Assembly: GCA_045639065.1 (NCBI GenBank)
Contig: JAZUCK010000023.1
Location: forward strand, 30,429 to 94,428
Reading direction: 5' to 3'
Origin: Alphaproteobacteria bacterium
Lineage (GTDB): Bacteria; Pseudomonadota; Alphaproteobacteria; RF32; CAG-239
DNA: 64,000 bases
Within the stretch, counting starts at the first letter, position 1, and each line of letters begins with the position of its first letter. The notes under the pieces were generated by a model, which saw only the letters and a program-made list of their open reading frames with translations, was not told where the DNA came from and did no database searches. Made by a program: the position numbers and the translations under genes. Of this stretch, positions 1,435 through 48,253 are shown in pieces.

Positions 1435-2262
1435 ATGTCTATTACATTAACCGCTAGTATGCGTTCAAATCTTTCGTCATTAAAAGTAATTCAATCTCAA
1501 ATGGATAAAACACAAGAGCGTCTTTCTACAGGTAAGAAAGTAAACTCTGCTATTGATAATGCTTCTTCTTACTATCAAGCCCGCTCTTTAACAAACCGTG
1601 CCGCTGATTTAGATTCCTTGTTAGATAGCATGGGTCAAGGTGTTCAAACAATTCAGGCCGCCAACGAAGGTATCGAAGCTATTACTGCTTTCGTAGAACA
1701 AATGAAATCAGTAGCTGAATCAGCAGCTGCACTTGATCCTGATGCTGAGGGATATGATGACAAAGTTGCCGGATATGCCGCACAATTTGATGCAATTAAA
1801 GAACAAATTGCAGATATTGCAAAAGATTCTTCATATCAAGGTGTAAACTTGTTGATTGGTAACAGCCTAAAGGTTGTATTTAACGAAACACGTACAAACG
1901 ATCTTACTGTTACAGGTAAAAATATCGTTAATGAAATGGCTATAACAGCAGCTGCCGGCGATGCAGGTTGGAAAACAGGAGTCGAAAAAATTACTGCATC
2001 AATTGGTGAAATTACAACAGCTGTAGAAACATTGCGTTCATTTGCAACAGAACTCGGTAATAACTTTACCATTATTGAAACACGTCAAAACTTTACCGAA
2101 GCTATGATTGATGTGTTAGAAACCGGTTCGGATAAGCTTGTACTTGCCGATATGAACGAAGAATCAGCTAACTACTTGGCATTGCAAACACGTCAACAAT
2201 TGGCTATTAATTCTTTGTCATTAGCTTCTCAATCTGCACAATCAGTATTGAGCTTGTTCTAA
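1435..2262 (+). CDS. flagellin, short alphaproteobacterial type with essentially no outer domain
   Basis: 275 aa. N-terminus is ITLTASMRSNL...GKKVNSAIDNASSYYQARSL and C-terminus is QTRQQLAINSLSLASQSAQSVLSLF. A GGGAGAAAAG RBS precedes the ATG. Confidence 0.92.
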   Translation: MSITLTASMRSNLSSLKVIQSQMDKTQERLSTGKKVNSAIDNASSYYQARSLTNRAADLDSLLDSMGQGVQTIQAANEGIEAITAFVEQMKSVAESAAALDPDAEGYDDKVAGYAAQFDAIKEQIADIAKDSSYQGVNLLIGNSLKVVFNETRTNDLTVTGKNIVNEMAITAAAGDAGWKTGVEKITASIGEITTAVETLRSFATELGNNFTIIETRQNFTEAMIDVLETGSDKLVLADMNEESANYLALQTRQQLAINSLSLASQSAQSVLSLF

Positions 2263-7129: not shown

Positions 7130-7151
7130 CAGGTAATGGGGAGATAGTGTC

Positions 7152-7928
7152 ATGACAGATTTAAGCTCAATTATCACATCAGTAAATTCAGGTGTTTCTA
7201 AAGGAACAAATTCTGCTCAAACTTTGTCTGCCGATATGGATACATTTTTAACATTATTGACGACACAGTTGCAATATCAAGATCCTTTGGATCCGATGGA
7301 CGCATCTGAATACACTAACCAACTTGTTCAGTACTCTAATGTGGAACAAGCAATCCAAACTAACTCAAAATTGGATAATTTGCTTAATTTATCAATTTAT
7401 AATTTGGGTGTTCAAGCGACAAGTTATGTTGGCAAAACAATTCAAGCCATTAGCGATATGATGCCATTAGATAAAGGCGTGGCTAAAGCTACTTACACTT
7501 TGAGCAAAGGTGTAACAGATTGCACAATCGTATTAAAAGATATGGATGATAAGGTCGTTTATACTGCAAAAGGTGAAACATCTTCAGGTGCTCATGATTT
7601 TCTATGGGATGGTAAAAATATAAACGGCGAACAACTACCGGATGGAGCATACAAAATCGAAGTATTGACGACAGTTCCTGAAGGTGAAGCATCAGCTTCG
7701 GTAACAACAACCGTATTTGGACGTGTAACAGGTGTTGCCAGTGATGATAGCGGAATTTATTTAGGTTTGGGTGATGCTTTAACTACCACACTTGATTATG
7801 TGGTAACATCACGCAACGAAGATTATTGGGATAAATTAATTGCCGAAATTCAGAAGAATAACGGCTCTTCATCAGAAGATGAAGGAATAAAAGAAGAATT
7901 AGAACAAATAATAGCGCAAATTGCGTAA
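7152..7928 (+). CDS. flgD: flagellar hook assembly/capping protein FlgD
   Basis: N-terminal FLTLLTTQLQYQDPLDPMD motif, a FlgD Ig-like middle part (HDFLWDGKNINGEQLPDGAYK), and position upstream of flgE. Confidence 0.88.
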   Translation: MTDLSSIITSVNSGVSKGTNSAQTLSADMDTFLTLLTTQLQYQDPLDPMDASEYTNQLVQYSNVEQAIQTNSKLDNLLNLSIYNLGVQATSYVGKTIQAISDMMPLDKGVAKATYTLSKGVTDCTIVLKDMDDKVVYTAKGETSSGAHDFLWDGKNINGEQLPDGAYKIEVLTTVPEGEASASVTTTVFGRVTGVASDDSGIYLGLGDALTTTLDYVVTSRNEDYWDKLIAEIQKNNGSSSEDEGIKEELEQIIAQIA

Positions 7929-7952
7929 GTAAAAAGTTTTAGGAGAAATAAA

Positions 7953-10097
7953 ATGAGTATTTTAGGAGCATTACAAGCCGGTGTATCAGGCCTCGGAGCG
8001 CAGTCAAGCGCAATGGGAGCTATTGCCGACAACATAGCCAATATGAATACTATTGGTTATAAAAATAACAATGTATCTTTTTCAACTTTGGTAACTAAAC
8101 AGGTGTCATCAAGCAAATATTCTGCAGGCGGTGTACAATCACACACATCACAAAGCATTGATACACAAGGTTTATTATCATCTGTTTCATCAACAACCTC
8201 ATTAGCTGTGAGCGGTAACGGATATTTCGTAGTGAATTCGCACAATATTGGTGATGGTACATGGGCATATACCCGTGCCGGTGATTTCTTGAAAGATGAA
8301 ACAGGATATTTGGTAAATTCCGGAGGATATTATGCACAAGCATGGTCTTTGATGCCTTGGGATGGTACTGAATCTGCAGCAACAGTTGAAATTAACGGCA
8401 TTATTTATATGAAAGCATATAAAAATGAAAATGGCGAAACTGTATACATCAATGACAATATTGTTGATGAAAACAATCTTCGCGGTATTAACCTTTCAAA
8501 CATCGGCGGAACAGCAACACCGACAACTCAAATTGCTTTTGGTGCTAACTTGCCTTCATCAAGCCGTATTGGCGAAACTCATTCTGTTTCTACCTTAATT
8601 TATGATAGCCTTGGTAATCCGAATAACATCAGTTTGAACTATACCAAAGAAACAGCAAACTCTTGGGGCTTGAAGACTTCTATTCCTTCAGGAGCTGCTG
8701 CTATCAACCTTTACACAACTGATGGTTTGGTTTATTCATCAATCGGACAAATGGAATTTACCGACATTCCTGCTGAGGGTTCTACAATTAAAATTAACGA
8801 TACCGTTTTTGAATTTGTTAATGACAAGAATCTTGAAAATGGCAGTGCAATCGGCAACGGTAATAATAATATTGCCGTCAATATTGCCGAAGCTAATTCG
8901 GTAAAAGATGCTATTGACAGATTTTTGGAAGCAATAGAGCTCAATGTCAGAGATGCCGGACGTTTTACAAGAGATAATAATGCTATTAAAATCCAGCAAT
9001 CACTAACAGGTAATGCCTTACAAATTGATTGTAGCGGAACATTGGCTTGTGTTCAGTCGGCTGCCGATATTGATCAATCATCAGGATTATCTCAAGGTAT
9101 CTTTACCGTAGAAGCTGTTGACAATCAAATCAAAAATTGCGCATATGTCGATTTTTCATCTATCACTCAAGGTCAAAGCATAACTATTGATGGTGTGGAA
9201 TTTGTATTTGATAATGTTCAAAATGCAGATACTCCGACCAAGATATATGTTGGTTATTCCGCAGATTATTCAATGGCACAATATGTTGATATGCTTACCA
9301 GAAAGATTCAAGATTCTAATGTGGCCGAGCCTGAAAGATTTGTTGCCAGCGGAAAAACCTTGCAAATTATTCCGACATCAACAGGCGAAGATATTACTGT
9401 AAATTATACGATAACAGCTGACTTTGCTCAGATTGCCGGTGGCGATCCTGAAAATGTAATTCCTGCCACAATAACAAATAAATTTACTTATGATGATGTT
9501 GAGCAATTAGGAAGCAAAATTCCGGCCATTATGTTCAATTCTGATGGTACACCAAAGAACATAAATGTTGAAAATATGGAAATATATTGGGCAAACGGAG
9601 CTCAAGATATGACCGGTGAAGTAAAATTGGGCGATGGTGTACAAATCAAAATTAACATGGGTGAAGAAAACGTATCAACAGGTTTGACAAATCTTTCCGG
9701 AGGTTTTTCAACAAGCTACATCAACCAAGATGGGGCAACATTTGGTAGCTACGCCGGTGTAACTGTCGGAGAAGATGGTGTTGTAACCGCAGTCTTCTCA
9801 AATGGTGAAACTCGTCCTATCGCAATTATACCTTTGGCAACTTTTGTAAATGCCAATGGTATGGAAGCTCTTAACAATAACGTTTGGATTGCAACAACCG
9901 AGTCCGGAAATCCTTTGTTGACACAAGCAACTACAGGTGGCGCCGGTGAAATAGTATCATCTTCATTGGAAAGCTCAACAGTTGATTTGGCAACCGAATT
10001 TTCAAATATGATTGTTGTACAAAGAGCTTATTCGGCAGCAGGAAAGATTATGACAACTGCTGATGAAATGTTACAAGAATTAACCAATCTTGTATAA
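7953..10097 (+). CDS. flgE: flagellar hook protein FlgE (large, 714 aa)
   Basis: N-terminal rod/hook motif AIADNIANMNTIGYK. C-terminal VDLATEFSNMIVVQRAYSAAGKIMTTADEMLQEL. Has a long central insert. Confidence 0.92.
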   Translation: MSILGALQAGVSGLGAQSSAMGAIADNIANMNTIGYKNNNVSFSTLVTKQVSSSKYSAGGVQSHTSQSIDTQGLLSSVSSTTSLAVSGNGYFVVNSHNIGDGTWAYTRAGDFLKDETGYLVNSGGYYAQAWSLMPWDGTESAATVEINGIIYMKAYKNENGETVYINDNIVDENNLRGINLSNIGGTATPTTQIAFGANLPSSSRIGETHSVSTLIYDSLGNPNNISLNYTKETANSWGLKTSIPSGAAAINLYTTDGLVYSSIGQMEFTDIPAEGSTIKINDTVFEFVNDKNLENGSAIGNGNNNIAVNIAEANSVKDAIDRFLEAIELNVRDAGRFTRDNNAIKIQQSLTGNALQIDCSGTLACVQSAADIDQSSGLSQGIFTVEAVDNQIKNCAYVDFSSITQGQSITIDGVEFVFDNVQNADTPTKIYVGYSADYSMAQYVDMLTRKIQDSNVAEPERFVASGKTLQIIPTSTGEDITVNYTITADFAQIAGGDPENVIPATITNKFTYDDVEQLGSKIPAIMFNSDGTPKNINVENMEIYWANGAQDMTGEVKLGDGVQIKINMGEENVSTGLTNLSGGFSTSYINQDGATFGSYAGVTVGEDGVVTAVFSNGETRPIAIIPLATFVNANGMEALNNNVWIATTESGNPLLTQATTGGAGEIVSSSLESSTVDLATEFSNMIVVQRAYSAAGKIMTTADEMLQELTNLV

Positions 10098-10328
10098 AAC
10101 TAAATAAATCCTAAAACTAAAAAGCAAAGGGGCCTCAGAATGAAGCCTCTTTTCTTTTTCTTTATAAATATCAGTAACTAACAAAGAGGCTGTTAATATC
10201 TTAAATAAATGATTAACTAATGTGTTTTTTTAAGTTAAATGATAAATAAAAGGGGAAATGATTCGCATCAACTTGTTTTTGTAAGTTGGCGGATTCTAGT
10301 GTTTATTTGCTTATAGATTGGGGAATCT

Positions 10329-11957
10329 ATGAATAATATATTGCAGATGATAAAGAATATGTCGCCTTCAAAGGTGGCTTCAATAGCAGCTATTATCATT
10401 TTTTTGATTAGCTTTTTTGTGTATGTAGCCGTACAAATGAGCGGTAACGAATATGTTGTTTTGTATTCTGATTTAGAGTTAAGTAATGCAAAACAAATTG
10501 TAAACAAACTCGATTCTGCCGGTATTGAATATCGTTTAGAAAAAAACGGAACTGAAATTTTGGTCCCGGCCGAAGATGTTAATCACTTGCGTTTGGATAC
10601 GGTTGACTTTGCTTTGGGCTCCGGTACAACATCAGTAGGCTATGAAGTTTTTGATAATACAGATGCTTTGGGTTCAACAAACTTTGTTCAAAATGTTAAT
10701 TTGCTCAGAGCTTTAGAAGGCGAACTTGCCAGAACAATAAGTTCAGTTGATAATATCAGAACAGCTCGTGTACATTTAGTTATGCCTAAAAGAGAGATTT
10801 TTTCCCGTGAAGAACAAAAGCCGTCTGCATCAGTTATTATAAAAACAAAAGAAGGCCCTCTAAATCCTCAAAGTATACAAGCAATTCAAAAATTGATTGC
10901 TGCGGCAGTTCCAAAACTTGATATGAAGGATATCTCCATTGTAGATTCTAATGGTAACTTGCTAACCGAATTCAGCGAAGAACAAAATGAAATTGTCAAA
11001 AAGTCAAACAATGAAACAATGCGTTTGGAGCAAGAATATAAATTGAATCAACGCTTGCAAGAATTATTGGAAAAAAGCTTAGGCAAAGGAAAGGCTCAGG
11101 TTCAAGTAAACTTAGAGATGGATTTTGATGAAGTTGTTACCAATGAAGAGATATTCGATCCGGACAGTCAGGTTGTTCGCTCTCAGGCCAGTATGACTGA
11201 AGAAGGAACTTCGGGACAAGACGCATCTCAACCTGTTACCGTAGGTCAAAATATACCAAACTCTGACAGTTCGTTCCCGTCTTCAAACGGAGCTTTTGGC
11301 ACAATGTCAAAAACCGAAGAAACTATCAATTATGAAATTTCTCGTATCGTTAGAAACAAAGTAAAGAATACCGGAACTATTTCTCGTGTTACTGCAGCTG
11401 TTTCTGTTGATGGTACATATAAAAGAAACGCCGAAGGTCGTATGGTATATCAACCGCGAACTCCCGAAGAAATGGAGCGCATTACCAATTTGGTAAAATC
11501 GGCTGTCGGATATGATGCTAATCGTGGAGATTTGGTCGAGGTTGTAAATATTAAATTCTCTTCATTTATTGATGAAGAAGATAGTCTTCCTGAAAAATTA
11601 TACATGGGCTTTACCAAACAAGAACTTATGCGTATGGCCGAAGGATTAGGCGTTGCAATAGTTGCAATATTGGTTATTTTATTGGTAATCAGACCGTTGA
11701 TAAACAATGCATTTGAAGTATCAAATAATAATTCTGCAGAAAAACTTATTTCATCGGGTGTAGATGAAGACAATCTGTTGTTGTCAAACTTCTTAAGTGA
11801 TAATTATGACGATGCTGCCGATGAGCTTGTCAATATAAACAAAGTTGACGGACGCATTAAGGTATCATTGATTAAGAAACTTAATGCAACGGTTGAAAAG
11901 AACCCTGATGCTTCAGTTAATGTAATTCGTAGTTGGTTATATGGTAATGAAGGTTAA
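10329..11957 (+). CDS. fliF: flagellar MS-ring protein FliF
   Basis: 542 aa. N-terminal TM segment, YscJ/FliF domain ([44 protein letters not shown]), and a second TM segment near the C-terminus. Confidence 0.92.
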
Positions 11958-11962
11958 TTACA

Positions 11963-12991
11963 ATGGCTATAAAACAAAACGTAATAGATGATTATAATCT
12001 TTTATCCGGTCAGCAAAAAGCCGCCATTTTGATGTTGTCATTAGATGAAGAACGTTCGGCAGCAATATTTTCTATGATGGATGATGAAGAAATTAAAGAA
12101 CTATCGGTAACAATGGCTTCATTAGGTAAAGTTAACTCTAATGTTATAGAACAGTTGATTAACGAATTTAGTGATAAAATTACCGATACAGGTAATTTGG
12201 TGGGAACATACGAAAGTACGGAAAGATTATTGGCCAAAGCTTTGGATAAAGACAGAGTTTCGGTTATTATGGAAGAGATAAGAGGTCCTGCCGGTCGAAC
12301 CATGTGGGATAAGTTGGGTAATGTAAATGAACACGTTTTAGCTAACTACCTAAAGAATGAATATCCGCAAACTATTGCTGTTATTTTATCAAAGATTAAA
12401 GCAGATCATGCAGCTAAAGTTATTGCATTATTTCCCGAAAATTTTGCAATGGAAATTGTTATGAGAATGCTACGAATGGATTCTGTTCAAAAAGAAGTAT
12501 TGGACAGCTTGGAAAAAACGTTAAGAAAAGAATTTATGAGTTCTTTGTCAAAATCAACCAGAAGAGATGCTCACGAATTTATTGCAGATATATTTAATTC
12601 TCTTGATAGAAATACCGAAACACGCTTTATGGAAGCTTTGGAAGAACGCAATCGTGAAAGTGCAGAAAGAGTAAAGTCTTTGATGTTCACGTTCGAAGAT
12701 TTGACAAGAATCGATTCTCAAGGCATTCAAATTTTGTTGCGCAATATAGACAAAGACAAACTTGCTATTGCATTGAAGGGTGCTTCAGATACCTTAAAAG
12801 ATTTGTTCTTCAACAATATGTCAACTCGTGCCGGAAAAATTGTCAAAGAAGATATGGATGCTATGGGTCCTGTTCGTATGCGTGAGGTTGAAGAAGCTCA
12901 ACAATACATTGTGGCCGCAGCAAAAGATTTGGCTGCATCCGGTGATATTGTTGTTGCCGAAGGTAATGATAGTGATGAGTTGGTATACTAG
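11963..12991 (+). CDS. fliG: flagellar motor switch protein FliG
   Basis: 342 aa. Contains [33 protein letters not shown] and the C-terminal [19 protein letters not shown] segment typical of FliG. Confidence 0.93.
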
Positions 12992-13009
12992 AGTAAAGGA
13001 TAAATTGAA

Positions 13010-13810
13010 GTGGCTAATTATCAGAAATACATGTTTGATGACTTTGTCGTAAAAAACGACAATGATGAATATGTATTAGCTGATGAGGAGCAACAATTTG
13101 AATATGAACCTGAAGAAAATATAGAAACAGAATTGTTTGAATCTGAGGTCGCCGATGATAAAAATGAAGAATATGTTGAAGAAAAAATTCAAGAAACTCA
13201 AAATGTAGTACCTATAGAAAATAATGATTCTGAGTTTGTTGCATATGATTATGTGAAAGAACCCGAAACAGAAGAAAATCTGGCCGTATATACGGAAGAA
13301 GAATTTCAAGAAGCAATGGTTAAAGCCGAAGAAGTTGCCTATAACAGAGGTTTAGAAGAAGCAAAAAATTCTTCTTTAGAGAAACAAAACATATTATTGG
13401 AAGATATTAAAAATCAGTTGATGACAATCTTTACGTCGCTTGATGATAAAAAAACGGATATGGAAAAAGATACGCTTAATTTTTCGGTAAACCTTGTAAG
13501 AAAAATTTTACCGACTTTGGAAAAAGAAAGAGCCGAAAAAGAAGTGAAAAATTTTTTGGCAGAAAATTTTGCCAATTTTTCATCCCAAGAAGCTTTATCT
13601 TTTTCTTTTAATCCCGATACCATATCCAAGGTTGCCGACAGTATTGGACGATTGGCCGAACAAAATGATTTTGAAGGAAAAATTTCTGTTCACAAAGACG
13701 TGTCTTTAGGTCCTTCCGATTGTCGAGTTGAATGGAAATCCGGAGGTGTAGAACGAAAGTCATCAAATGTATTGGATAAAGTTACAAATTTGATAAATAC
13801 AAAAGAATAA
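13010..13810 (+). CDS. FliH/FlbE-like flagellar export apparatus protein (tentative)
   Basis: Acidic N-terminus and coiled-coil middle. Occupies the slot between fliG and fliN, as FlbE/FliH does in the Caulobacter fliF operon. The call is mainly positional. GTG start. Confidence 0.5.
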   Translation: MANYQKYMFDDFVVKNDNDEYVLADEEQQFEYEPEENIETELFESEVADDKNEEYVEEKIQETQNVVPIENNDSEFVAYDYVKEPETEENLAVYTEEEFQEAMVKAEEVAYNRGLEEAKNSSLEKQNILLEDIKNQLMTIFTSLDDKKTDMEKDTLNFSVNLVRKILPTLEKERAEKEVKNFLAENFANFSSQEALSFSFNPDTISKVADSIGRLAEQNDFEGKISVHKDVSLGPSDCRVEWKSGGVERKSSNVLDKVTNLINTKE

Positions 13811-13820
13811 GAGAGGGAAA

Positions 13821-14174
13821 ATGGATAATAATTTAGAACTTAATGAAATCAGCGAAGCAAGCGTTTTAGATAACGAACCGCTTTTACGCAAAGATATAGG
13901 TGTCGAGGATTTTGACATTCCTACATCTACATCGGATTTAGAAGCCGTATACAATATACCGGTTAAGGTTTCGGCCGTTTTGGGAAAAGCCAGTATGAAA
14001 GTCAGCCAACTGATGAAATTAAATAAAGGTGCTATTATTGAATTGGATAGAAAAGTTGGTGAAGCTATTGACATTTATGTAAACAATTCTTTAGTTGCTC
14101 GCGGTGAAGTGGTAGTTGTTGATAACAAACTCGGCATTACCATGACAGAAATTATCAAATCTACAGGAAAATAA
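13821..14174 (+). CDS. fliN: flagellar motor switch protein FliN
   Basis: 117 aa. C-terminal SpoA domain IPVKVSAVLGKASMKVSQLMKLNKGAIIELDRKVGEAIDIYVNNSLVARGEVVVVDNKLGITMTEI. Confidence 0.9.
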   Translation: MDNNLELNEISEASVLDNEPLLRKDIGVEDFDIPTSTSDLEAVYNIPVKVSAVLGKASMKVSQLMKLNKGAIIELDRKVGEAIDIYVNNSLVARGEVVVVDNKLGITMTEIIKSTGK

Positions 14175-14189
14175 GGATTATTACCTAAG

Positions 14190-15518
14190 ATGGAATTGCT
14201 TATAGTCGGAACACTAAATGGTCAAATCGGAGCTGCCAGTAAGATAGCAATATCAAAAGGCGGTCAGGTTTCGTTGGCCGATAGTGTTGAAAAAGCACTT
14301 GATATATTATATTCAGGCAAAAACATTGAGCTGATTATGGTTGATGTAACACTTGATGTTCACAAGCTTATTTCATCTTTGGAATCTTCAAGAATCAATG
14401 TATTGGTTGTTGCTTGCGGAGTAGCTAATGACACTTCTTTAGCGGTAAAAGCAATTAAAGCCGGAGCAAAGGAATATATCCCTCTACCTCCTGATCCGGA
14501 ACTTATCGGAGCTGTATTGGCAGCCGCAACCAGAGAAAATCATGCACTTATTTATGGAGATAAAAGAACTGAAGCTATTTTAAAAATGGCTAAGCAAATC
14601 GCTCCTTCGGAGGCTTCAGTTTTGTTAACCGGTTCTTCCGGAACGGGTAAAGAAATTTTTTCACGTTTTGTTCATGATAATTCTAAAAGGGCTAACCAAA
14701 AATTTGTAGCCGTAAACTGTGCAGCCATTCCTGAAGCATTGCTTGAATCTGAGTTGTTCGGTTATGAAAAAGGTGCTTTTACCGGAGCTGTTTCTCGCCG
14801 CATCGGAAAGTTTGAAGAAGCTTCCGGCGGTACATTATTGCTTGATGAAATATCCGAAATGGACATTTCTCTACAAGCAAAATTACTTCGTGCAATTCAA
14901 GAAAAAGAAATCGACAGATTAGGCGGAAAAGCTCCCATAAAAGTAGATACCAGAATAATTGCTACATCAAACAGGGATTTGGAAAAATGCACGCTTGATG
15001 GTACATTTCGCCAAGACCTGTACTATCGTTTGAATGTAATAAACATAAATATTCCTGATCTCAAGGATAGGGTCGGTGATATTGTAGTTTTGGCAAAACA
15101 TTTTATCAAAAAATATTCCGAGCTTAACGGTTTGCCGATGAAAGATTTATCAGCAAAAGCCGAAGAAATGTTGCTTAATTATTTATGGCCGGGTAACGTT
15201 CGTGAACTCGAAAATACTATGCACCGTGCGGTATTATTATCGACAGGCGAAGAAATTGATGAAAACTCAATTATTTTACAAACACCATCGGCCGTAAGAG
15301 AAGTAAAAGAAGATAACGATAAAAAAGAAGAAGCTGCATTTGTCGGAAAAACAGTTGCTGAAGTTGAGCGCAAGCTCATTTTGGATACTATGGAAGATAC
15401 AATGTGGAACCGTTCGGCTGCCGCCACGATATTAGGTATATCGATTCGTACACTTCGAAACAAACTGAAACAGTATCAGGAAGAAGGTTATACAATTCCT
15501 TCGTCTAATCAAGGATAG
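14190..15518 (+). CDS. flbD: sigma54-dependent flagellar transcriptional activator, FlbD-like
   Basis: Divergent receiver domain lacking the N-terminal acidic pair. AAA+ core with Walker A GSSGTGKE and the sigma54-contact motif ESELFGYEKGAFTGA. C-terminal Fis-type HTH. Follows fliN as in Caulobacter. Confidence 0.88.
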   Translation: MELLIVGTLNGQIGAASKIAISKGGQVSLADSVEKALDILYSGKNIELIMVDVTLDVHKLISSLESSRINVLVVACGVANDTSLAVKAIKAGAKEYIPLPPDPELIGAVLAAATRENHALIYGDKRTEAILKMAKQIAPSEASVLLTGSSGTGKEIFSRFVHDNSKRANQKFVAVNCAAIPEALLESELFGYEKGAFTGAVSRRIGKFEEASGGTLLLDEISEMDISLQAKLLRAIQEKEIDRLGGKAPIKVDTRIIATSNRDLEKCTLDGTFRQDLYYRLNVININIPDLKDRVGDIVVLAKHFIKKYSELNGLPMKDLSAKAEEMLLNYLWPGNVRELENTMHRAVLLSTGEEIDENSIILQTPSAVREVKEDNDKKEEAAFVGKTVAEVERKLILDTMEDTMWNRSAAATILGISIRTLRNKLKQYQEEGYTIPSSNQG

Positions 15519-15525
15519 TTAAAAA

Positions 15526-17640
15526 ATGGCCGGCAATATAACTAAAAACGGATTTTCAAGTTCAATGAAAGATATGCTCCTAAGTTCTGCTAAAAGGGGC
15601 GACTTGTTTTTTGCTTTTGCCATTATCTTGATGTTAGTTATTTTGATTATGCCAATGCCTGTGTGGTTATTGGATATATCATTGGCTATGTCTATAACCT
15701 TGGCTTGTGTTGTTTTGATGATGGCAATCTTTATCGAAAAACCGATAGAATTTAGCGCTTTTCCTCTTGTTTTGTTAATTACCACAATGTTTCGCTTAGC
15801 GCTTAATTTGGCATCGACAAGACTTATATTATCACGAGGTTATATGGGCGATAATGCAGCCGGTGAAGTAATTAAGGCATTCGGCGGCTTTATTATGGGT
15901 AACAACTTTGTTATCGGTGTTATCGTTTTTGCAATACTGGTTTTGGTAAACTTTATAGTAATTACCAAAGGTTCGGGACGTATCGCTGAGGTTGCTGCTC
16001 GTTTTGCATTAGATGCCATGCCCGGAAAACAAATGGCAATCGATGCTGATTTGTCATCAGGTTTGATAAATGAAGACGAAGCCAAAAAACGCCGTGAAGA
16101 TCTTTCCAAAGAAAGCTCATTTTACGGAGCTATGGATGGTGCTTCTAAATTCGTACGAGGCGATGCTATAGCAGGTCTCTTAATTACATTTATCAATATC
16201 GTTGCCGGTATTATTATCGGTATGGTTCAAAATGATATGAGCTTTGCACAAGCCGGCGAAACATATACTCGCTTAACTGTCGGTGATGGGTTGGTTTCAC
16301 AAGTTCCGGCATTGATTGTATCTGTCGGCGCTGGTATCTTGGTATCAAAAGCCGGTATGACCGAATCAACCGACAAAGTTTTGTTTGAACAGTTGGCTAA
16401 TTATCCGAAAGCCCTAGGTATGAGCTCCGGTTTGGCGGTGGTTTTAGGTTTAATCCCCGGTACTCCGGCCGTTCCGTTTTTTATTTTATCGGCAATAACC
16501 GGAACAACTGCATATTATTTATCTAAGCAACAAAGAGAAGAAGCAGCCAAGGTTCAGGCTGTGTTAGAGCAAGAACAAAAGCAGTCGGCTATAAGTAAAA
16601 TGACCGACGAGCCGATAGCTAATGTTTTGAAAGTTGACTTAATTCGTCTTGAAATCGGTTATGGTTTGCTTCCTTTGATAAACGATGACACCAACCGTAA
16701 ACTTACCGATCAAATAAAAGCCCTAAGAAGAGCTCTTGCCTCAGAACTAGGTTTTGTTATGCCATCAATCCGCATCCAAGATAATATGCAATTAGAGGCT
16801 AATGAATATAACATATATGTTAAGGAAGTAAAATCGGGCAAGGGCGAAATCAGACCGACACAACTGCTGGTTATGGACCCCAGAGGTGATAAGATAAATC
16901 TTCCCGGTGAAGAAACTTTAGAGCCGACTTTCGGATTGAAGGCTATGTGGATAGACCCATCCTACAGAGAAGAAGCTATGTTCAGAGGTTATACTGTTGT
17001 TGATCCTGCGACTGTTGTAACCACACATATTACCGAGTTGGTAAAAGAGAATATGTCAGAATTGTTATCATACGCCGAAACTCAAAAGTTGCTCGACGAA
17101 ATGGATAAAGAACATCAAAAGTTGGTTAAAGATCTTATACCCAATAAGATTAGCTTGGCTGCTGTTCAAAGAATTTTGAAAAACCTGTTACAAGAGCGCG
17201 TATCCATTCGTGATTTGCCAACCATTTTGGAAGGTATATCCGAAGCTGTTACCTCAACTCATAGCTTGATGTTAATAACCGAACACGTACGTTCGCGATT
17301 GTCACGCCAATTATCTAATGCTTACTCTAATGAGTTCGGCGTAATATCACTGGTTCCGCTATCTGCAGAATGGGAGCAAAATTTTGCTCAATCAATTATC
17401 GGAGACGGCGATGAAAAACAACTTGCAATGGCTCCATCTACACTCCAGTCGTTTATAACTAAGGTGCGTAATGTTTTGGAAGAGCTTGCACTAAAAGGTG
17501 AAAATCCGGTATTATTGACCAGTCCGAACATCAGACCTTTTGTTCGTTCAATTATTGAACGTTTCCGTCCGTTAAGCGCGGTAATGTCGCAAAACGAAAT
17601 TCATCCCAAGGCTAAGATAAAAACCGTAGGTCAGATATAA
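15526..17640 (+). CDS. flhA: flagellar type III export gate protein FlhA
   Basis: 704 aa. Multi-TM N-terminal half with the FHIPEP-type motif (GGFIMGNNFVIGVIVFAILVLVNFIVITKGSGRIAEVAARFALDAMPGKQMAIDADL). Confidence 0.95.
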   Translation: MAGNITKNGFSSSMKDMLLSSAKRGDLFFAFAIILMLVILIMPMPVWLLDISLAMSITLACVVLMMAIFIEKPIEFSAFPLVLLITTMFRLALNLASTRLILSRGYMGDNAAGEVIKAFGGFIMGNNFVIGVIVFAILVLVNFIVITKGSGRIAEVAARFALDAMPGKQMAIDADLSSGLINEDEAKKRREDLSKESSFYGAMDGASKFVRGDAIAGLLITFINIVAGIIIGMVQNDMSFAQAGETYTRLTVGDGLVSQVPALIVSVGAGILVSKAGMTESTDKVLFEQLANYPKALGMSSGLAVVLGLIPGTPAVPFFILSAITGTTAYYLSKQQREEAAKVQAVLEQEQKQSAISKMTDEPIANVLKVDLIRLEIGYGLLPLINDDTNRKLTDQIKALRRALASELGFVMPSIRIQDNMQLEANEYNIYVKEVKSGKGEIRPTQLLVMDPRGDKINLPGEETLEPTFGLKAMWIDPSYREEAMFRGYTVVDPATVVTTHITELVKENMSELLSYAETQKLLDEMDKEHQKLVKDLIPNKISLAAVQRILKNLLQERVSIRDLPTILEGISEAVTSTHSLMLITEHVRSRLSRQLSNAYSNEFGVISLVPLSAEWEQNFAQSIIGDGDEKQLAMAPSTLQSFITKVRNVLEELALKGENPVLLTSPNIRPFVRSIIERFRPLSAVMSQNEIHPKAKIKTVGQI

Positions 17641-27692: not shown

Positions 27693-28475
27693 ATGACAGC
27701 ACCTTTAATGCCCAAAGCAACAGCTGTATGGTTGGTTGAAAATACTACTTTGACATTTCGCCAAATATCTGTTTTTTGTGAGATTCACGAGCTTGAGATT
27801 CAGGCTATGGCTGATGGCGATGTATCGGGAAATATTCGCGGTCTTTCTCCGGTTGATAATGGTCAATTAACATGGGATGAAATTCATCGTTGCGAAGCTG
27901 ATAAAAAAGCAAACTTACAAGCTTGCGAAATGGAACGTAATGTCAAAGCTCGTAATTTGAAAGCTAAAAAGGTTTTGTCTCCATCACAACGTCAGGATAA
28001 ACCTAATGCCATTGCATGGATAATTAAAAACTATCCGCAAATAAAAGATACATTAGTCTGCAAACTTATTGGTACAACCAAAACTACAATTCAAGCAATT
28101 CGCGAAGGAACACATAAAGATTCTGCTAATATTAAGCCTAAGAATCCTGTAACAATAGGTTTGTGTTCTGAGGCAGATATTGAAAAAGCTTTATTGGCGT
28201 CTCAACCTAAACCAAAAGCCGAGAAGAAAGCAAAACCTGCTAAAAAGAAGGCTAAGCCGGCTAAGAAAAAAACTGCTAAAAAGACAGAAAAAAAAGCAAA
28301 ACCTGCCAAGAAAACAGTAGCTAAAAAGACAGAAAAAAAAGCAAAACCTGCCAAGAAAACAGTAGCTAAAAAGGCAGAAAAGAAAGCAAAACCTGCCAAG
28401 AAAACAGTAGCTAAAAAAGCTCCGGCTAAAAAGACAACAGCTAAGAAAAAAACAGCTAAAAAGGCTAAAGCCTAA
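27693..28475 (+). CDS. DUF1013 (TrcR-like) protein with a Lys/Ala/Pro-rich histone-H1-like tail
   Basis: The N-terminal 170 aa (PLMPKATAVWLVENTTLTFRQISVFCEIHELEIQAMADGD) resemble the alphaproteobacteria-specific DUF1013 family. The C-terminus consists of AKPAKKTVAKKTEKK repeats. Confidence 0.7.
   Translation: MTAPLMPKATAVWLVENTTLTFRQISVFCEIHELEIQAMADGDVSGNIRGLSPVDNGQLTWDEIHRCEADKKANLQACEMERNVKARNLKAKKVLSPSQRQDKPNAIAWIIKNYPQIKDTLVCKLIGTTKTTIQAIREGTHKDSANIKPKNPVTIGLCSEADIEKALLASQPKPKAEKKAKPAKKKAKPAKKKTAKKTEKKAKPAKKTVAKKTEKKAKPAKKTVAKKAEKKAKPAKKTVAKKAPAKKTTAKKKTAKKAKA
28275..28409 (+). repeat. 45-bp in-frame tandem repeat, three copies
   Basis: Unit GCTAAAAAGACAGAAAAAAAAGCAAAACCTGCCAAGAAAACAGTA starts at 28275, 28320 and 28365, with a partial copy at 28410. 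The copies are nearly identical. Confidence 0.9.
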
Positions 28476-40964: not shown

Positions 40965-41620
40965 GCCAAAACACAAGAATACAGCACGGCAAAAAAGTGC
41001 ATAACCGTACCGCTAAGGACAAAGAAATGCCAAATAGCGTGGGTATATTTTTTTGACTTTTGAATATAAAACAGAACACCAAAGGTATAAAATAATCCGC
41101 CTAAAACGAGGAATATTAAACCCAGTGAGGGAATAGCGCTGACCAAAGATTTTGATGCAAAAACAATCAGCCATCCCATAATCAGATAAAGCGATATTGA
41201 CCAAATTTTAGTGCCGCTTCCCGAGGTTACGAGTTTTAATATCGTTCCCAAAATTGCCAATCCCCATATAATACCGAATATTACCCAACCGGTAACACCT
41301 CGAAGTGAAACCAACAAAAACGGAGTATAAGAGCCGGCAATCAGATAATATATGGATATGTGGTCAAACTTTTTTAATTTCTTTTTGATTTTTTCATCTC
41401 TAAAGGCGTGATAAAGAGTAGATGCGGTGTATAAAACAACCATACTTGCGCCAAAAATAGCCGTGGAAACAATCGCCCACACATCAGCATAAAGCGAAGC
41501 AAAAACTACCAACAATACAAGTCCGGTAATACTCAAACCGATACCTATACCGTGAATTATGGAGCTCCACATTTCTTCTTTTGATGAGTAGGTCCTTACA
41601 TTTGACATAACACCCTCCAA
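40961..41620 (-). CDS. hemolysin III / PAQR-family membrane protein
   Basis: Seven hydrophobic segments. Contains HAFRDEKIKK, DHISIYYLIAGSYTPF and HAIWHFFVL. Confidence 0.85.
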   Translation of the reverse strand: MEGVMSNVRTYSSKEEMWSSIIHGIGIGLSITGLVLLVVFASLYADVWAIVSTAIFGASMVVLYTASTLYHAFRDEKIKKKLKKFDHISIYYLIAGSYTPFLLVSLRGVTGWVIFGIIWGLAILGTILKLVTSGSGTKIWSISLYLIMGWLIVFASKSLVSAIPSLGLIFLVLGGLFYTFGVLFYIQKSKKYTHAIWHFFVLSGTVMHFFAVLYSCVLA

Positions 41621-41758
41621 AACAAATTATAAAAAATTTTGACATTCATTAGAAATACTGTCAAGAAGGCACTTTTTTGAGTGTAAGTATGGTGCAAGAA
41701 ACTATTGTAAAAATTTTAACAGACAATATTATATCGCATTAAAAGTTCTAAGAAGTTT

Positions 41759-43054
41759 ATGTTTGATATTCAATTTTATAAGATGGCGATGCTAAAAATA
41801 GATTTGCAAGATTTGTTTTTTGCATATTTTAACTGTCGCAAAAACAAAAGGCGCACGGTAAATGCACTTGATTTTGAATTAGACTTCGAAACCAAGCTTA
41901 TCAAATTATATAATGATATAAAAAAACGCAAATACGAAATAGGCAAATCAATAGCATTTATAGTATTTGAGCCGGTAAAGCGAGAAGTTTTTGCTGCTAA
42001 TTTTCGAGACAGAATAGTTCATCATTATATTATAGATAAAATAAACAAATATTTTGAAAAAGATTTTATAGACGACAGTTATAGTTGCCGAGAGGGTAAA
42101 GGTACCTTATACGGAGTAACACGCATATACGAATATATGCGTGAATGTTCGCAAAATTATACAAAAGATTGTCATATACTAAAGTTGGACATTCGTTCAT
42201 TTTTTATGAACATTGATAAAAATATATTATTCAAAAGCCTTAAAAAATTTTTGGACAGTAAGTATAAAAATCCTGACAAAGACACAATTTTATACCTGAT
42301 AAAAAAGGTAATTTTCAACAATCCCGAAGACAATTGTATAATAAAAGGCAAACTATCAGATTGGAACGGTTTGCCTTATTACAAAAGCTTGTTTTGGTCG
42401 AACAAAAACAACGGATTGCCCATAGGAAATCTGACCTCGCAGGTTTTTGCCAATTTTTATTTAAACTCTTTAGATAAATACATTACAAAAGATTTGGGTA
42501 TAAAATATTATGGTCGCTACGTTGATGATTTTGTAATTATCCACGAGGATAAGGAATACTTAAAGAAGGTACATATAAAAATAGCAAATTTTTTAAGACG
42601 AGAGCTAAAACTTACACTTCATCCGCAAAAAGTATATCTTCAACACTATAGCAAAGGGGTAAAATTTATTGGTGCCATAATCAAGCCCAATCGAATATAT
42701 ATCGGCAACAGGACCAAAAACGGATTGTATAATAAGATTGGCTCAAAGCTTGAGATAATGTCACAAGATTTGCCAATAGCACTCAAAGAGATTGCAAATT
42801 TTGAAGCAAGTATAAATTCATATTTTGGATTTATGCGTCATTATAACAGCTATAATTTGCGCCGTCATACCATAGAAAAACTGCAAGAAACATTTGTAGG
42901 CGATATGATGGAAGACAAAAAAGAATATAACAAGATTTCTATAGATAAGCTATTTCGTCCCTTAGAGCAAAAAAAATATCAACTGCGTCATCAACGACAA
43001 TATCGAAGGTGGCAATATAATTCAAAAAGGAGTAATAAAAATGGCAATATATAA
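41759..43054 (+). CDS. DGR-type reverse transcriptase
   Basis: 431 aa. Contains the DGR-clade signature LPIGNLTSQVFANFYLN (I/LGxxxSQ) and the catalytic YGRYVDDFVI (YxDD). No maturase/endonuclease extension. Adjacent to avd and the TR. Confidence 0.92.
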   Translation: MFDIQFYKMAMLKIDLQDLFFAYFNCRKNKRRTVNALDFELDFETKLIKLYNDIKKRKYEIGKSIAFIVFEPVKREVFAANFRDRIVHHYIIDKINKYFEKDFIDDSYSCREGKGTLYGVTRIYEYMRECSQNYTKDCHILKLDIRSFFMNIDKNILFKSLKKFLDSKYKNPDKDTILYLIKKVIFNNPEDNCIIKGKLSDWNGLPYYKSLFWSNKNNGLPIGNLTSQVFANFYLNSLDKYITKDLGIKYYGRYVDDFVIIHEDKEYLKKVHIKIANFLRRELKLTLHPQKVYLQHYSKGVKFIGAIIKPNRIYIGNRTKNGLYNKIGSKLEIMSQDLPIALKEIANFEASINSYFGFMRHYNSYNLRRHTIEKLQETFVGDMMEDKKEYNKISIDKLFRPLEQKKYQLRHQRQYRRWQYNSKRSNKNGNI

Positions 43055-43394
43055 TCAACTGCCGATATATAAGGATTCGTATCAGCTTTTGCTTGAGATA
43101 TATCAAGTTACATCAAAATTCTCTAGAGAACACAAATATAATCTAGGTCAAGATATGAGGCGAGATGCATTAGCAATGATGCGACATTTATATGGAGCAA
43201 ATATAAATATTGAGCACAGGCAAGAATATATCGACAGATTTTTAAATATGTTTGAAATGTTAAAGGTCGAAATAAGGTTATGTGTTGATATGAACATAAT
43301 GAGTATAAATCGCCTTGCGCATATCAGTTTGATAATGGATTCGATAGCCAAGCAAGCGAGGGCATGGAGAGCAAGGAGCGGTCAAAAACAATAA
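43041..43394 (+). CDS. avd: DGR accessory variability determinant (Avd-like four-helix-bundle protein)
   Basis: 117 aa, basic and helical. The N-terminus LPIYKDSYQLLLEIYQVTSKFSREHKYNLGQDMRRDA is typical of the four-helix-bundle / 23S rRNA intervening-sequence protein family. Overlaps the RT stop by 14 nt. Confidence 0.85.
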   Translation: MAIYNQLPIYKDSYQLLLEIYQVTSKFSREHKYNLGQDMRRDALAMMRHLYGANINIEHRQEYIDRFLNMFEMLKVEIRLCVDMNIMSINRLAHISLIMDSIAKQARAWRARSGQKQ

Positions 43395-43410
43395 AAGTCT
43401 TTAACTAAAA

Positions 43411-43522
43411 AAGCCGAAACGCACGGGCGTTGTTGTTGTTATTCTTATTGTTGTTGTTCCGATTGCCATCGGATGTATTTAGTTTCCATGAGTTATTTGA
43501 ATTGTACTCAGAGGAGGACCAA
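43411..43522 (-). repeat. DGR template repeat (TR), with its sense strand on the minus strand
   Basis: The reverse complement is colinear with 45316-45430. Its conceptual translation is Asn-rich: WSSSEYNSNNSWKLNTSDGNRNNNNKNNNNNARAFRL, made of AAC/AAT codons. All 17 substitutions relative to the VR are at TR adenines. Confidence 0.93.
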
Positions 43523-43719
43523 ACCTGACAATATTTTTGTTATCGTTTAAATTTTGAACGACATCTATTAAATCAGATGCTGTAGATAACCCTTTTTTAA
43601 TTAAAAAAAGCTCACTCCTAACGACACGAAATCGATAGAATTCCGGCAGAATATCCAACCGCTCCGGTTAAATATGCTAGTGTTTAAAATTTTTTATGTC
43701 AATAAGGTAAATCAAAACC

Positions 43720-43858
43720 GTCATCCCCCTGAGCGAATGCAATGAGCGAGGTAAGGCATCTTCCTTGTTTTATTTAATTTGAAGATCGCTAACCGCACTC
43801 CGCTAAAGCTTCGTTTAGGCGATGACTCATTATGTCATTCCTCATTCAAGGCGTTGAC
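43720..43858. repeat. palindromic repeat units upstream of the giant flagellin (same family as 46351-47090)
   Basis: The unit at 43720-43765, GTCAT-CCCC..TGAGCGA..GAGCGAG..AGGC-ATCTTC, is an inverted copy of the downstream B unit. The unit at 43781-43826 is GAAGAT-CGCT..AGGCG-ATGAC. A partial unit lies at 43834-43858. Confidence 0.75.
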
Positions 43859-43984
43859 AGAAAAATAATTTTTTTTATATTATTAAGGAAATATTTACAA
43901 ATTTTATGTACAAGCTATAGTATATAAGTGTGTCTTAATATAAGCGCACAATGTAAGAAATACAACCAAAATAGGAAAGAAACA

Positions 43985-46330
43985 ATGGCGAATAGCACCA
44001 TAACATTGACAGCCTCGATGCGTTCGAATCTGATGTCGCTAAAAAATATAGCCACACAAATGAGCAAGACACAAAATATCCTTTCGACCGGCAAAAAGGT
44101 AAATTCAGCCATTGACAATGCTTCCAGTTATTATCAAGCCCGAAGCCTAAGCAATCGTGCGGCAGACCTAAATGCTTTGTTAGATACAATGGGACAAGGT
44201 ATCCAAACCTTGCAAGCCGCTAATGAAGGAATTGAGGCGGCAACATCATATTTGGAGCAAGCCAAAGCAGTAATAGAACAAGCGTCATCAACCGGCGCGA
44301 CCCCTCTGACTTCACAAGTACAATTAACCGACAATGTCGAAGAGCTGTTGGCACAAGGCTATATAGCTATTGATTCGAGTATGACGGGCGAAGATATTAT
44401 GAATTTAATTGCCGAATTAGATGCCGACGGCGAAGAAATAAATCTTGTTTTAACCGAAGATATAGAAATAGATGATTATTTTGAGTTTTATGAAGCAGAT
44501 GTAACCATCAACGGTGCTGGTCATACATTAAAATTGACAAATGAGTGGGGACAACTTTATCTTGGTGGTGAAAATACAACAATAGAAAATATGACTATAG
44601 AGCACACCGGAAATAGTGATAGAGTAATTTATAGCGAAACAACAGGATTGACATTAAGAAATGTCAATATAAATCATGAATATACCGGCAACTATAGCGC
44701 ACAAACAGTATATATGGAATGTGGCGGAACAGTAGAGAATGTAAACATTAATACCAAAGCCGAATCAGTTTTAGCAGGAGTTTTAAGTTATTCCGGCGAT
44801 TTAGATATCAAAAACTTAACTATGGACTTGAGTATTGAGAAAAAAGGCTCGGTAACCGGAGTTTATGCCGGAGCCGGATATGATGGCACCGAAGGTGGCA
44901 ATGTAACGGTTGACGGCATGAGCATCAATGCTCATGGCGAGAACATCAAAGGACTTTGGGCAGCCGGCGAAGTAACAGGCTTAGAAGGTGTTTATAGCGG
45001 AAATTCGAGCATTCCACAATCATTGACCAACGGCAAAGCCAACACCCAAGCGATAGTTGCACAACTAGGTTCAGACGCCAAAGCAGCCTATGCCACAACC
45101 CAATTTTACGTTGGTGATAAGAATGGTGAGTTTGGACAGGGAAAATGGTATTTACCTTCCATTGCGGAGCTAATGGACCTTTATGGAACAGATTATGATG
45201 GTATCAATGGCGGATATGGCATAAGTGGAGCCAATGGCGACAACCTAAGCGCTATCAATACCACCCTCGGCGAATTGGCAGATGACGGTATCGCGGAGGA
45301 AATGGATGGGTGGTATTGGTCCTCCTCTGAGTTCCTTTCAAATTACTCATGGCTACTACTTACATCCGATGGCAGTCGGAACTACTCCAATAAGCATACT
45401 AACGGCTACAGCGCCCGTGCGTTTCGGCTTGTAGAAAATTGCTTTAACCCTTCACTTCTTTCCGGCGCCGAAGGCGACGGCATTCCCAAAGTGGGTGATA
45501 TAATGTATTTAGATAAGTCATGGGGCACATTAGAAGACTATGACTCATCAAAAGCCGATCAAGTAGCCGGCGTCATCTGTGGCGTGGGTGATGATGGTTC
45601 AGTAAGGGTTGTATCATTAAAAGATTTGACTTTCAGTTCATTAGATGACGCCGGAATTTTTAATCCGGACGATCCATACGGCGGAAGTACCAAATATGTC
45701 AGATGGGCAACCTATGATAACGGTAAGTGGGAAGAAAATATCGAAGCTATTACCGACGTAGATGATGCCGCGTTAGCGGCCGCGTTTAATCAGCTTAAAG
45801 GTATTAGTGTCGAAGCAATCAATAATGCTTTTACAAAAGTTGATGTAGATACATATAAAGAACAGTTCAATGACGTTATAAGCCAATATGATGATCTAAT
45901 TAAAGATGCTTCATATCAAGGTGTAAATCTACTTACCGGTGGTGAACTAAATGTTGTCTTTAATGAAACTCGCACGCACAGTTTTAATGTCAAAGGCGAG
46001 GATATTCGCTCGGATAAGTTAGGCTTAAAAACTGTAAGCTGGAATAATGCCGGCGAATTGGAAGTTACTGTCGAATCATTAAAAAATGCTATCAATAAAT
46101 TACGCTCGGTGGCAACTGATTTAGGTAATAAATATACTATTATCCAAACTCGTCAAAACTTTACCGAGGCTTTAACAGATGTATTAGAAACCGGCGCTGA
46201 TGATTTAGTATTAGCCGATATGAATGAGACATCAGCCGAATATCTGATGTTGCAAACAAGACAACAATTGGCAATCAATTCTTTATCTCTTGCTTCGCAA
46301 TCAGCCAGCTCAATCTTGAGTTTGTTTTAA
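43985..46330 (+). CDS. giant flagellin (781 aa) with a central beta-helix-like plus DUF1566/C-type-lectin-fold-like insert; the DGR target
   Basis: The N-terminal roughly 110 aa and C-terminal roughly 160 aa are colinear with, and highly similar to, the flagellin at 1435-2262 (ITLTASMRSNL..GKKVNSAIDNASSYYQARSL; QTRQQLAINSLSLASQSASSILSLF). The ATG at 43985 with an AGGAAAG RBS is preferred over 43928. The insert has repeats (IENMTIE, LRNVNIN, VENVNIN, IKNLTMD, VDGMSIN) followed by GKWYLPSIAELMDLYG...WYWSSSEF...YSARAFRLV. Confidence 0.9.
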   Translation: MANSTITLTASMRSNLMSLKNIATQMSKTQNILSTGKKVNSAIDNASSYYQARSLSNRAADLNALLDTMGQGIQTLQAANEGIEAATSYLEQAKAVIEQASSTGATPLTSQVQLTDNVEELLAQGYIAIDSSMTGEDIMNLIAELDADGEEINLVLTEDIEIDDYFEFYEADVTINGAGHTLKLTNEWGQLYLGGENTTIENMTIEHTGNSDRVIYSETTGLTLRNVNINHEYTGNYSAQTVYMECGGTVENVNINTKAESVLAGVLSYSGDLDIKNLTMDLSIEKKGSVTGVYAGAGYDGTEGGNVTVDGMSINAHGENIKGLWAAGEVTGLEGVYSGNSSIPQSLTNGKANTQAIVAQLGSDAKAAYATTQFYVGDKNGEFGQGKWYLPSIAELMDLYGTDYDGINGGYGISGANGDNLSAINTTLGELADDGIAEEMDGWYWSSSEFLSNYSWLLLTSDGSRNYSNKHTNGYSARAFRLVENCFNPSLLSGAEGDGIPKVGDIMYLDKSWGTLEDYDSSKADQVAGVICGVGDDGSVRVVSLKDLTFSSLDDAGIFNPDDPYGGSTKYVRWATYDNGKWEENIEAITDVDDAALAAAFNQLKGISVEAINNAFTKVDVDTYKEQFNDVISQYDDLIKDASYQGVNLLTGGELNVVFNETRTHSFNVKGEDIRSDKLGLKTVSWNNAGELEVTVESLKNAINKLRSVATDLGNKYTIIQTRQNFTEALTDVLETGADDLVLADMNETSAEYLMLQTRQQLAINSLSLASQSASSILSLF
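45316..45430 (+). repeat. DGR variable repeat (VR) inside the flagellin insert
   Basis: 115 nt matching the reverse complement of 43411-43522. There are 17 substitutions and one extra codon. Encodes WSSSEFLSNYSWLLLTSDGSRNYSNKHTNGYSARAFRL. The variable codons span about aa 450-476 of 781. Confidence 0.93.
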
Positions 46331-46350
46331 GTAAAAATAAAAAACAAACA

Positions 46351-47090
46351 GTCATCCCACCAAATCGACAGATTTGGTCAAGGGATCTTCAACTTTAAAA
46401 AAAGAAGAAGATGCCTAGTTTCGCTCGTCCCTCGCTCAAGGCATGACAGTTTAAATAACAATAATTAAAAGTCATCCCTCCAAATCGACAGATTTGGTCA
46501 AGGGATCTTCAACTTTTTAAAAAATTAAAAGAAGAAGATGCCTAGTCTCGCTCGTCCCTCGCTCAAGGCATGACATTATTTGATAAAAAACAAGAACCGC
46601 GACTTTTATATATTTTAAACGGGTCCGGGCGTGTGCAGAAACTTCTTATGCTTTACGTCAAAAGTGTTTGATTAAGGTAATGGATTTAAGGTGCAATGGA
46701 TATGGAAGCGTATTTTGGCGTGAAGCATTAGAAATCGAACCAGCCCGGCAATTTTTGGTTACTTTTTGTTGGCAAAAAGTAACGTAAGAAAAAAGAAGAA
46801 GATGCCTAGTCTCGCTCGTCCCTCGCTCAAGGCATGACAGTTTAAATAACAATAATTAAAAGTCATCCCTCGTTTTCGATAAGAAAACGTCAAGGGATCT
46901 TCAACTTTAAAAAAAGAAGAAGATGCCTAATCTCGCTCGTACCTCGCTCAAGGCATGACAGTTTAAATAACAATAATTAACAGTCATCCCTCGTTTTCGA
47001 TAAGAAAACGTCAAGGGATCTTCAACTTTGTAAAAAATTAAAAGAAGAAGATTGCTTGACCTCGTCGCTATACTCTTCTTAAGCGATGAC
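46351..47090. repeat. array of roughly 120-bp composite palindromic repeats (alternating A and B units) downstream of the flagellin
   Basis: A units (GTCATCCCxC-hairpin-TCAAGGGATCTTC) lie at 46351-46390, 46471-46510, 46862-46902 and 46983-47023. B units (GAAGAAGATGCCT..CTCGCTCGTCCCTCGCTCA-AGGCATGAC) lie at 46404-46447, 46531-46574, 46795-46838 and 46916-46959, with a degenerate copy at 47044-47090. A unique 220-bp segment interrupts the array at 46575-46794. Confidence 0.85.
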
Positions 47091-47179
47091 ATAATAAATT
47101 TAAATAAAAACAATGCCATAATTTTTGCTGTAAAATTATCAAAAATAGCTTGAAAAAAAATCACTTAATGATAAATTAG

Positions 47180-48253
<1,074 letters not shown>

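Follow-up and report, generated by a model that had tools for sequence, protein, structure and literature searches.

Which gene do the paired repeats in this stretch of DNA (64 kb, hereafter the window) serve to rewrite, and is the element that carries them genuine and still at work? An earlier note had paired the reverse complement of 43411–43522 with 45316–45430 and read the differences between the two as the mark of mutagenic retrohoming from a template repeat (TR) to a variable repeat (VR). Computed local alignment returned the same coordinates, pairing TR 43522..43411 on the minus strand with VR 45316..45430 on the plus strand, with similarity dropping sharply beyond both repeat ends; together with a masked-pattern scan, it delimits a TR of 112 nt (43411..43522, sense strand minus) and a VR of 115 nt whose codons, W445–L482, lie inside a flagellin gene. 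The repeats differ by 17 substitutions, all 17 at a TR adenine (seven A>T, five A>C and five A>G) and none at a TR C, G or T, exactly the count and the base specificity that the note had given; with adenine at 41 of the 112 TR positions, the hypergeometric probability of 17/17 falling on A is 2.8e-9. When every A of the TR is masked as N, the pattern matches the TR and VR sites only within the 64-kb window, where 0 matches are expected. Both repeats end in the same 18-nt, GC-rich, A-free segment, GCCCGTGCGTTTCGGCTT (45413..45430, plus strand, in the VR), after which similarity collapses, as expected of the IMH-like boundary that had been proposed.

The details of the pair called for some correction. 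The supposed end-to-end match holds for the interval ends and fails for the lengths, 112 versus 115 nt, as the VR carries one codon more than the TR within the AAT/AAC run; once this unmentioned codon is counted, 13 codons differ rather than approximately 12. The TR is indeed rich in AAY codons, but it is not proof against stops, since mutation can turn its AAA and AAG codons into them. In all, 20 codons of the VR are rewritable, which corresponds to ~1e21 possible peptides.

The enzymes expected of such an element adjoin the TR. An RT gene of 431 aa (41759..43054, plus strand; Pfam RVT_1, 69 bits; IGNLTSQ and YVDD in the translation) overlaps by 14 nt an avd gene of 117 aa (43041..43394, plus strand), whose product matches Pfam bAvd PF22296 at 49 bits (cut-off 40) and NCBIfam DivGenRetAVD NF033474 at 44.5 bits, under the cut-off of 80. 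The model libraries used contain no DGR-specific RT model. An RT search recovered related cassettes, 57–63% identical, in metagenome-assembled gut alphaproteobacterial genomes, among them the RTs that adjoin TR/VR pairs at loci L017, L018, L020, L021, L023 and L041; every one of the closest RT relatives lies beside such a pair. A group II intron or retron RT was rejected, as the corresponding models score far under their cut-offs and an Avd and a TR/VR pair are present. The sense strand of the TR (minus) is opposite to that of RT and avd (plus); a 59-aa minus-strand open reading frame at 43479–43658, which overlies the TR and the conserved leader RNA described below and lacks a family match, was discarded as a gene. 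Its neighbours (gltX, argS, gap and pgk) have housekeeping functions, which places the element in the chromosome and outside any prophage. As it combines RT and Avd with a TR/VR pair that is adenine-specific and has a common 3′ end, GC-rich and free of A, it falls under the definition of a DGR, and we are nearly certain that it is a genuine one, apparently of the DUF1566/CLec2 kind. The retrohoming signature claimed earlier is thereby upheld; what that reading overlooked, besides the one-codon length difference, is that the TR is inverted and that the target is a flagellin, with the VR in its interior.

This target, 781 aa long (43985..46330, plus strand), matches Flagellin_N at 48.6 bits (cut-off 26.6) and Flagellin_C at 23.9 bits (cut-off 23.0). 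Against NCBIfam it reaches 182 and 172 bits with flagellin families and 22 bits with FlgL, scores on which its identification as FlgL was rejected. The family profile finds Caulobacter flagellins in the PDB (E 6e-8), the top Foldseek matches of the whole AF2 model are the Caulobacter FljK/L/M/N filaments (E 5e-5), and the C terminus resembles Caulobacter flagellins as far as the final ILSLF. The same genome encodes a canonical short flagellin of 275 aa (1435..2262, plus strand), followed by a flagellar gene cluster at 5579–17640, and the 3′ end of the short gene shares 73% nucleotide identity with 46088–46330 of the target. Flagellar apparatus genes in the window comprise FliK, FlgE, FliF, a sigma-54 activator and FlhA alongside the 275-aa flagellin. 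The DGR target is thus very probably a true flagellin.

Between its flagellin ends the protein holds an insert of ~570 residues, in which Pfam models mark a Pectate_lyase_5 beta-helix (23.7 bits), then an Lcl_C/DUF1566 domain (28.9 bits, under the gathering score of 34.9), plus a further domain. The VR, residues 445–482 of 781, is hence internal and falls within the Lcl_C/DUF1566 domain. The AF2 model, built on 41 sequences, has a mean pLDDT of 83, exceeding 90 for residues 120–600, and renders the VR as beta strands of a lectin-like domain (pLDDT 95–97), with low confidence in the D0 segments. The family profile also matches the Legionella Lcl C-terminal domain 8q4e (E 7e-4); the isolated lectin-domain model gives only weak, non-significant Foldseek matches, to the Bacteroides fimbrial protein 4eps (E 0.13) and to Lcl (E 0.25), and phmmer of the central domains against the PDB yielded chance matches only. 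A lectin fold is therefore assigned to the VR domain tentatively, from matches that are weak or below threshold. At this strength, a gut alphaproteobacterium hosts a DGR acting on a lectin-like domain inserted in a flagellin.

Where would such a domain be displayed? Flagellin can accommodate a folded, functional domain in its hypervariable middle and display it on the filament, as in giant flagellins and flagellinolysin, and a lectin-like domain inserted between the flagellin D1 helices should face the filament exterior. We consider it fairly likely that the 781-aa flagellin sits in the filament. A different reading, which we regard as unlikely, takes the target to be an exported but unpolymerized flagellin-like protein, such as a secreted or hook-associated adhesin, so that the variable domain would be absent along the filament. 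The weak FlgL matches (22 bits), the low modelled confidence of the D0 segments and the very large insert all lean that way. They are offset by the much stronger flagellin-family scores, the Caulobacter-like C terminus and the 73% identity to the short flagellin in the window, and giant flagellins with large outer domains do polymerize.

The pairing of this RT–Avd family with flagellin recurs. In four other gut alphaproteobacterial genomes (L017, L018, L021 and L041) the family is paired with flagellin targets through A-specific TR/VR pairs, with 16/16 substitutions at A in L018, and at L017, L018 and L021 the cassette adjoins a homologous flagellin that holds the VR. In JAHALQ01, one of these four genomes, no DGR lies within 6 kb of the flagellin at L001; scanned with a pattern, the genome yielded one TR beside an RT–Avd cassette and, at three loci, three matching VRs (16/16, 18/18 and 16/17 substitutions at A), the targets being two flagellins and one small protein with a C-terminal VR. 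The RT–Avd/flagellin pairing is therefore conserved, and a single TR can act in trans on several targets. Further out in the RT family (L020, L022, L023 and L025), the targets are of the ordinary sort, with Lcl_C as their C-terminal domain. In a related genome, L005 5746–7731 codes for a secreted protein of 661 aa, rich in Cys, that has two Lcl_C-type domains and lacks flagellin ends; it adjoins the argS–lipoprotein pair that neighbours the DGR in the window and contains an internal repeat without adenine bias. In the related genome SUUJ01 (L002, L003, L004 and L006), flagellin paralogues number at least four, each on its own contig, and some contain the inserted domains.

Comparison across these elements brings out candidate cis-acting sequences. 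A TR leader of ~150 nt (43523..43671, minus strand), 5′ of the TR on the TR-sense strand, is conserved across six elements, that of the window and those at L017, L018, L021, L023 and L041. It contains a nested stem–loop (43590–43539, minus strand) with an outer stem formed by 43590–43585 and 43544–43539 and an inner stem formed by 43583–43575 and 43566–43558. The outer stem is 100% paired in all sequences, with both-sided changes in four of its six pairs; its score was reached in 0 of 500 shuffles, and sliding the partner column destroys the pairing. As these compensatory changes lie on the TR-sense strand, the comparative data support a functional minus-strand RNA. Just upstream of the leader start, a consensus scan marks a candidate sigma-70-like promoter (TTGACA-17-TAGCAT; 43674..43702, minus strand), from which we infer that the TR transcript could be driven. 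Folding scores were each uninformative alone (z −2.1 for the 371-nt TR transcript region; z −0.65 for 121 nt around the VR end), and an Rfam search of 41500–47300 returned no match.

A second element is specific to the VR. Downstream of it (45431..45480, plus strand), ~30 nt beginning GTAGAAAATTGCTTTAACCCTT... are conserved in DNA among targets that are otherwise ~45% identical as proteins, and are followed by a GC-rich hairpin at 45462–45480. In L038 this conservation extends beyond the stop codon, and the segment is absent downstream of TRs. Six flagellin VRs have a GC-rich hairpin at the matching offset, the stem sequence varying from one to another (z about −2). Identical IMH and IMH* sequences, as here, were anticipated by Wu et al. 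2018 (PMC5758913); since the two are identical in the window, discrimination between VR and TR must lie downstream, and the VR-only segment and hairpin would let the machinery tell one from the other. Other repeats are present in the window. A family of intergenic repeats, ~120 nt in length and with GC-rich palindromes, flanks the flagellin gene on either side (46332–47052 and 43744–43850), and it is at these repeats that contigs L007, L008 and L016 from other samples end or jump. Separately, a 45-nt tandem repeat at 28214–28462 encodes a Lys/Ala-rich stretch within the open reading frame 27693–28475.

The opposite strands of the TR and its RT set the window apart from the relatives, in which the two share a strand, with the TR a short way ahead of RT. 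In the window, as at L017 and L021, the TR is directed away from the flagellin gene; what now follows its 3′ end in the window is antisense avd, where relatives have a spacer. Given the co-oriented TR and RT of the relatives and the shared TR–flagellin orientation of L017, L021 and the window, it is the RT–avd block that appears to have been inverted in the window lineage, which would be the simplest account of the opposite-strand TR. Inverted repeats were sought where the block begins and ends, with no clear signal in this AT-rich DNA. There is a weak inverted similarity (24 nt, 71%) between 41699–41722, just upstream of the RT gene, and 43525–43548, at the leader end, which could be a trace of rearrangement or chance in AT-rich DNA. 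In L008 (1–6083), from one sample, the RT–Avd–TR block is followed by repeats, and beyond these, in place of flagellin, come a gene with a PHP domain and an operon for ribosomal proteins, an arrangement that reflects either a rearrangement or misassembly across repeats.

Strains from other samples record part of the history of the pair. An identical avd and the same RT–Avd–TR arrangement occur in 10 contigs from other samples, and the arrangement is maintained in strains 96.7–99.7% identical. The TR is conserved in these 10 contigs except for one 115-nt variant (AAT then AAC ×5) and one A>G change; eight of the 10 copies have the full-length 112-nt TR, and both recovered VRs are 115 nt. The second of these VRs comes from L036/L037, contigs of other metagenomes that encode a flagellin with identical VR flanks and with the downstream 300 nt 97.7% identical. 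It differs from the VR of the window at 25 positions, 24 of which are TR-adenine sites. Outside the VR area, the L036 gene has 78–88% nucleotide identity to the flagellin of the window, and it could represent a second, paralogous target and not an allele. Further scans for variants returned little: the N-masked TR pattern had 0 matches in the genome contigs, two metagenome scans for VR variants gave nothing or only the TR contig already known, and exact look-ups of the RT and of the flagellin found no match. The VR population within the species was thus not recovered, and the 90% identity cluster of the flagellin has a single member.

Because the lengths differ by one codon, the VR as it stands cannot have been templated exactly by the TR in its present 112-nt form. 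The 115-nt TR of L011 was considered in that role and rejected on account of one remaining C>T mismatch. The template that best accounts for both VRs is a 115-nt TR with AAT AAT AAC ×4, against which all 18 substitutions of the window fall at A; this template is one deletion away from the TR of the window and one T>C change away from that of L011. On this fit, the TR has been altered since the VR was last fully rewritten, and, the TR now being one codon shorter, no complete homing from the present TR has been fixed since it changed.

Such a history could mean that the element is a relic, its differences recording past activity and the element itself silent since the RT–avd inversion and the 3-nt TR deletion. 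The length mismatch, repeated in the eight of 10 TR copies of 112 nt against two VRs of 115 nt, is what a relic would leave, and, compared with the relatives, the TR no longer has its native sequence on the 3′ side. Yet each of RT, avd, TR, leader stem and VR-downstream element is intact, strains 96.7–99.7% identical retain the arrangement, and both indels opposite AAC runs and a split of TR and RT between strands have been reported for DGRs deemed functional (PMC5758913). We find a relic improbable, and judge it somewhat likely that the element is currently active in this genome.

The VR alleles also bear on what the rewriting might achieve. The TR codon AAG (Lys) is left unchanged in each of the eight VRs with this codon in their TR, at 45391–45393 in the window and at the matching codon in L017, L018, L021, L036, L038, L039 and L040, though the neighbouring AAY codons are heavily mutated; this constancy suggests protein-level selection on the VR. 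At the same time, four of seven distinct flagellin VR alleles are broken by a stop or a frameshift: that of L036/L037 (L036 1343–1458) has a TAA stop, that of L017 a TAA stop and a +1 frameshift, and those of L021 and L039 a +1 frameshift each. The L017 TR has a TAA as well, at a Tyr codon, and the TAA of the L036 VR is at the same codon. These alleles may be real off states made by the DGR or artefacts of consensus assembly. On the former reading, the main effect could be on/off switching, with VR stops and frameshifts silencing an immunogenic or phage-targeted filament subunit. The four broken alleles, the TAA in the L017 TR, the AAA and AAG codons of the window TR that can turn into stops and the presence of other flagellin genes would all suit a switch. 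Set against them, the stop-prone AAG codon is never mutated, the window, L018 and L040 alleles are intact, and metagenome consensus sequences may not be real haplotypes; as the main effect, switching seems to us still less likely than either reading weighed above. A plain duplicated gene fragment or gene-conversion tract arising without a retroelement, for which this analysis found no supporting evidence, is refuted by the adenine-only substitutions (P 2.8e-9), by the adjoining RT and Avd and by the recurrence of the pattern in five related loci, and has a negligible chance of being correct.

We therefore return to a chromosomal DGR that diversifies a flagellin, and consider the following mechanism fairly likely. 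The TR, with its conserved structured leader, would be transcribed off the minus strand, and a complex of RT and Avd made from the plus-strand genes would reverse-copy the TR RNA to cDNA, misincorporating opposite adenines. The cDNA would then replace the VR within the flagellin gene, with the common GC-rich segment as the 3′ boundary and the VR-only downstream element and hairpin marking the VR apart from the TR. In this way the 20 codons of the putatively lectin-fold Lcl_C/DUF1566 domain would be rewritten, the likely outcome being a filament that bears many copies of a variable ligand-binding surface. We infer as its probable use adhesion to changing gut ligands, or evasion of antibody or of flagellum-binding phage. 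For the wider clade of gut Alphaproteobacteria we entertain, with evenly balanced confidence, an extended version in which one TR rewrites the lectin domains of flagellin paralogues in trans, the filament becomes polyvalent and VR stops and frameshifts double as a subunit switch.

The closest known system is the LdtA DGR of Legionella pneumophila (CLec2/DUF1566, category 'd'; Wu et al. 2018, PMC5758913), which is likewise chromosomal with an Avd and shares with the window a VR in a DUF1566/Lcl_C-type lectin domain (tentatively assigned here), an AAC/AAT-rich TR and a GC-rich inverted repeat after the VR. LdtA, however, is an outer-membrane lipoprotein with a C-terminal VR, whereas the window target is a flagellin with an internal VR and a TR opposite to the RT strand. 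Precedents for TR/RT strand splits, AAC indels, identical IMH/IMH* and rare internal VRs are all found in Wu et al. 2018 (PMC5758913), with only one case of an internal VR in CLec2 DGRs. With the Bordetella phage BPP-1 DGR (mtd-avd-TR-brt), the window shares A-specific mutagenic retrohoming, an Avd–RT pair, a lectin-fold variable protein (tentatively so here) and an IMH-like boundary followed by a hairpin; the BPP-1 element, in contrast, is phage-borne, targets a tail fibre, has all parts on one strand and has an IMH that differs from IMH*, the two being identical in the window. The spacer that primes cDNA synthesis in BPP-1 lies 3′ of the TR, whereas the conserved RNA structure in the window lies 5′ of it. 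As in a gut Bacteroides DGR, the ligand-binding domain of a surface appendage would be diversified, and the best, though weak, Foldseek match of the isolated domain is the Bacteroides protein 4eps; the Bacteroides DGR varies a single pilus tip subunit, and that of the window, from a different phylum, would vary a repeating subunit of the flagellar filament.

Bacteria that undergo classical flagellar phase or antigenic variation likewise vary or switch flagellin antigens. To our knowledge, flagellin variation has been described through invertible promoters, recombination among flagellin genes and slipped-strand mispairing, not through templated RT mutagenesis of a lectin domain. In full-text literature searches, the only paper found to link DGRs with flagellin was Yan 2019 (PMC6642488), where flagellin is named once, as a single word in a list of targets, and whose supplements hold no flagellin entry; the large DGR surveys and the gut Bacteroides DGR study make no mention of flagella. 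As far as we could find, the target class and its display context are new, and the type of DGR is itself known.

Most DGR targets described hitherto are phage tail fibres, lipoproteins, pilus tip adhesins or signalling proteins. A target in flagellin, if true, would join templated hypermutation to the main motility organelle, which gut immunity (TLR5, IgA) also sees as a major antigen and which flagellum-binding phages use as a receptor. Since a filament is built of many flagellin copies, each with a variable lectin, it would be expected to act as a very high-avidity, quickly retargetable adhesin. The family further provides a natural test case for how a VR is recognized when IMH and IMH* are identical, for whether a TR can function from the strand opposite its RT and for the role of a conserved structured leader 5′ of the TR.
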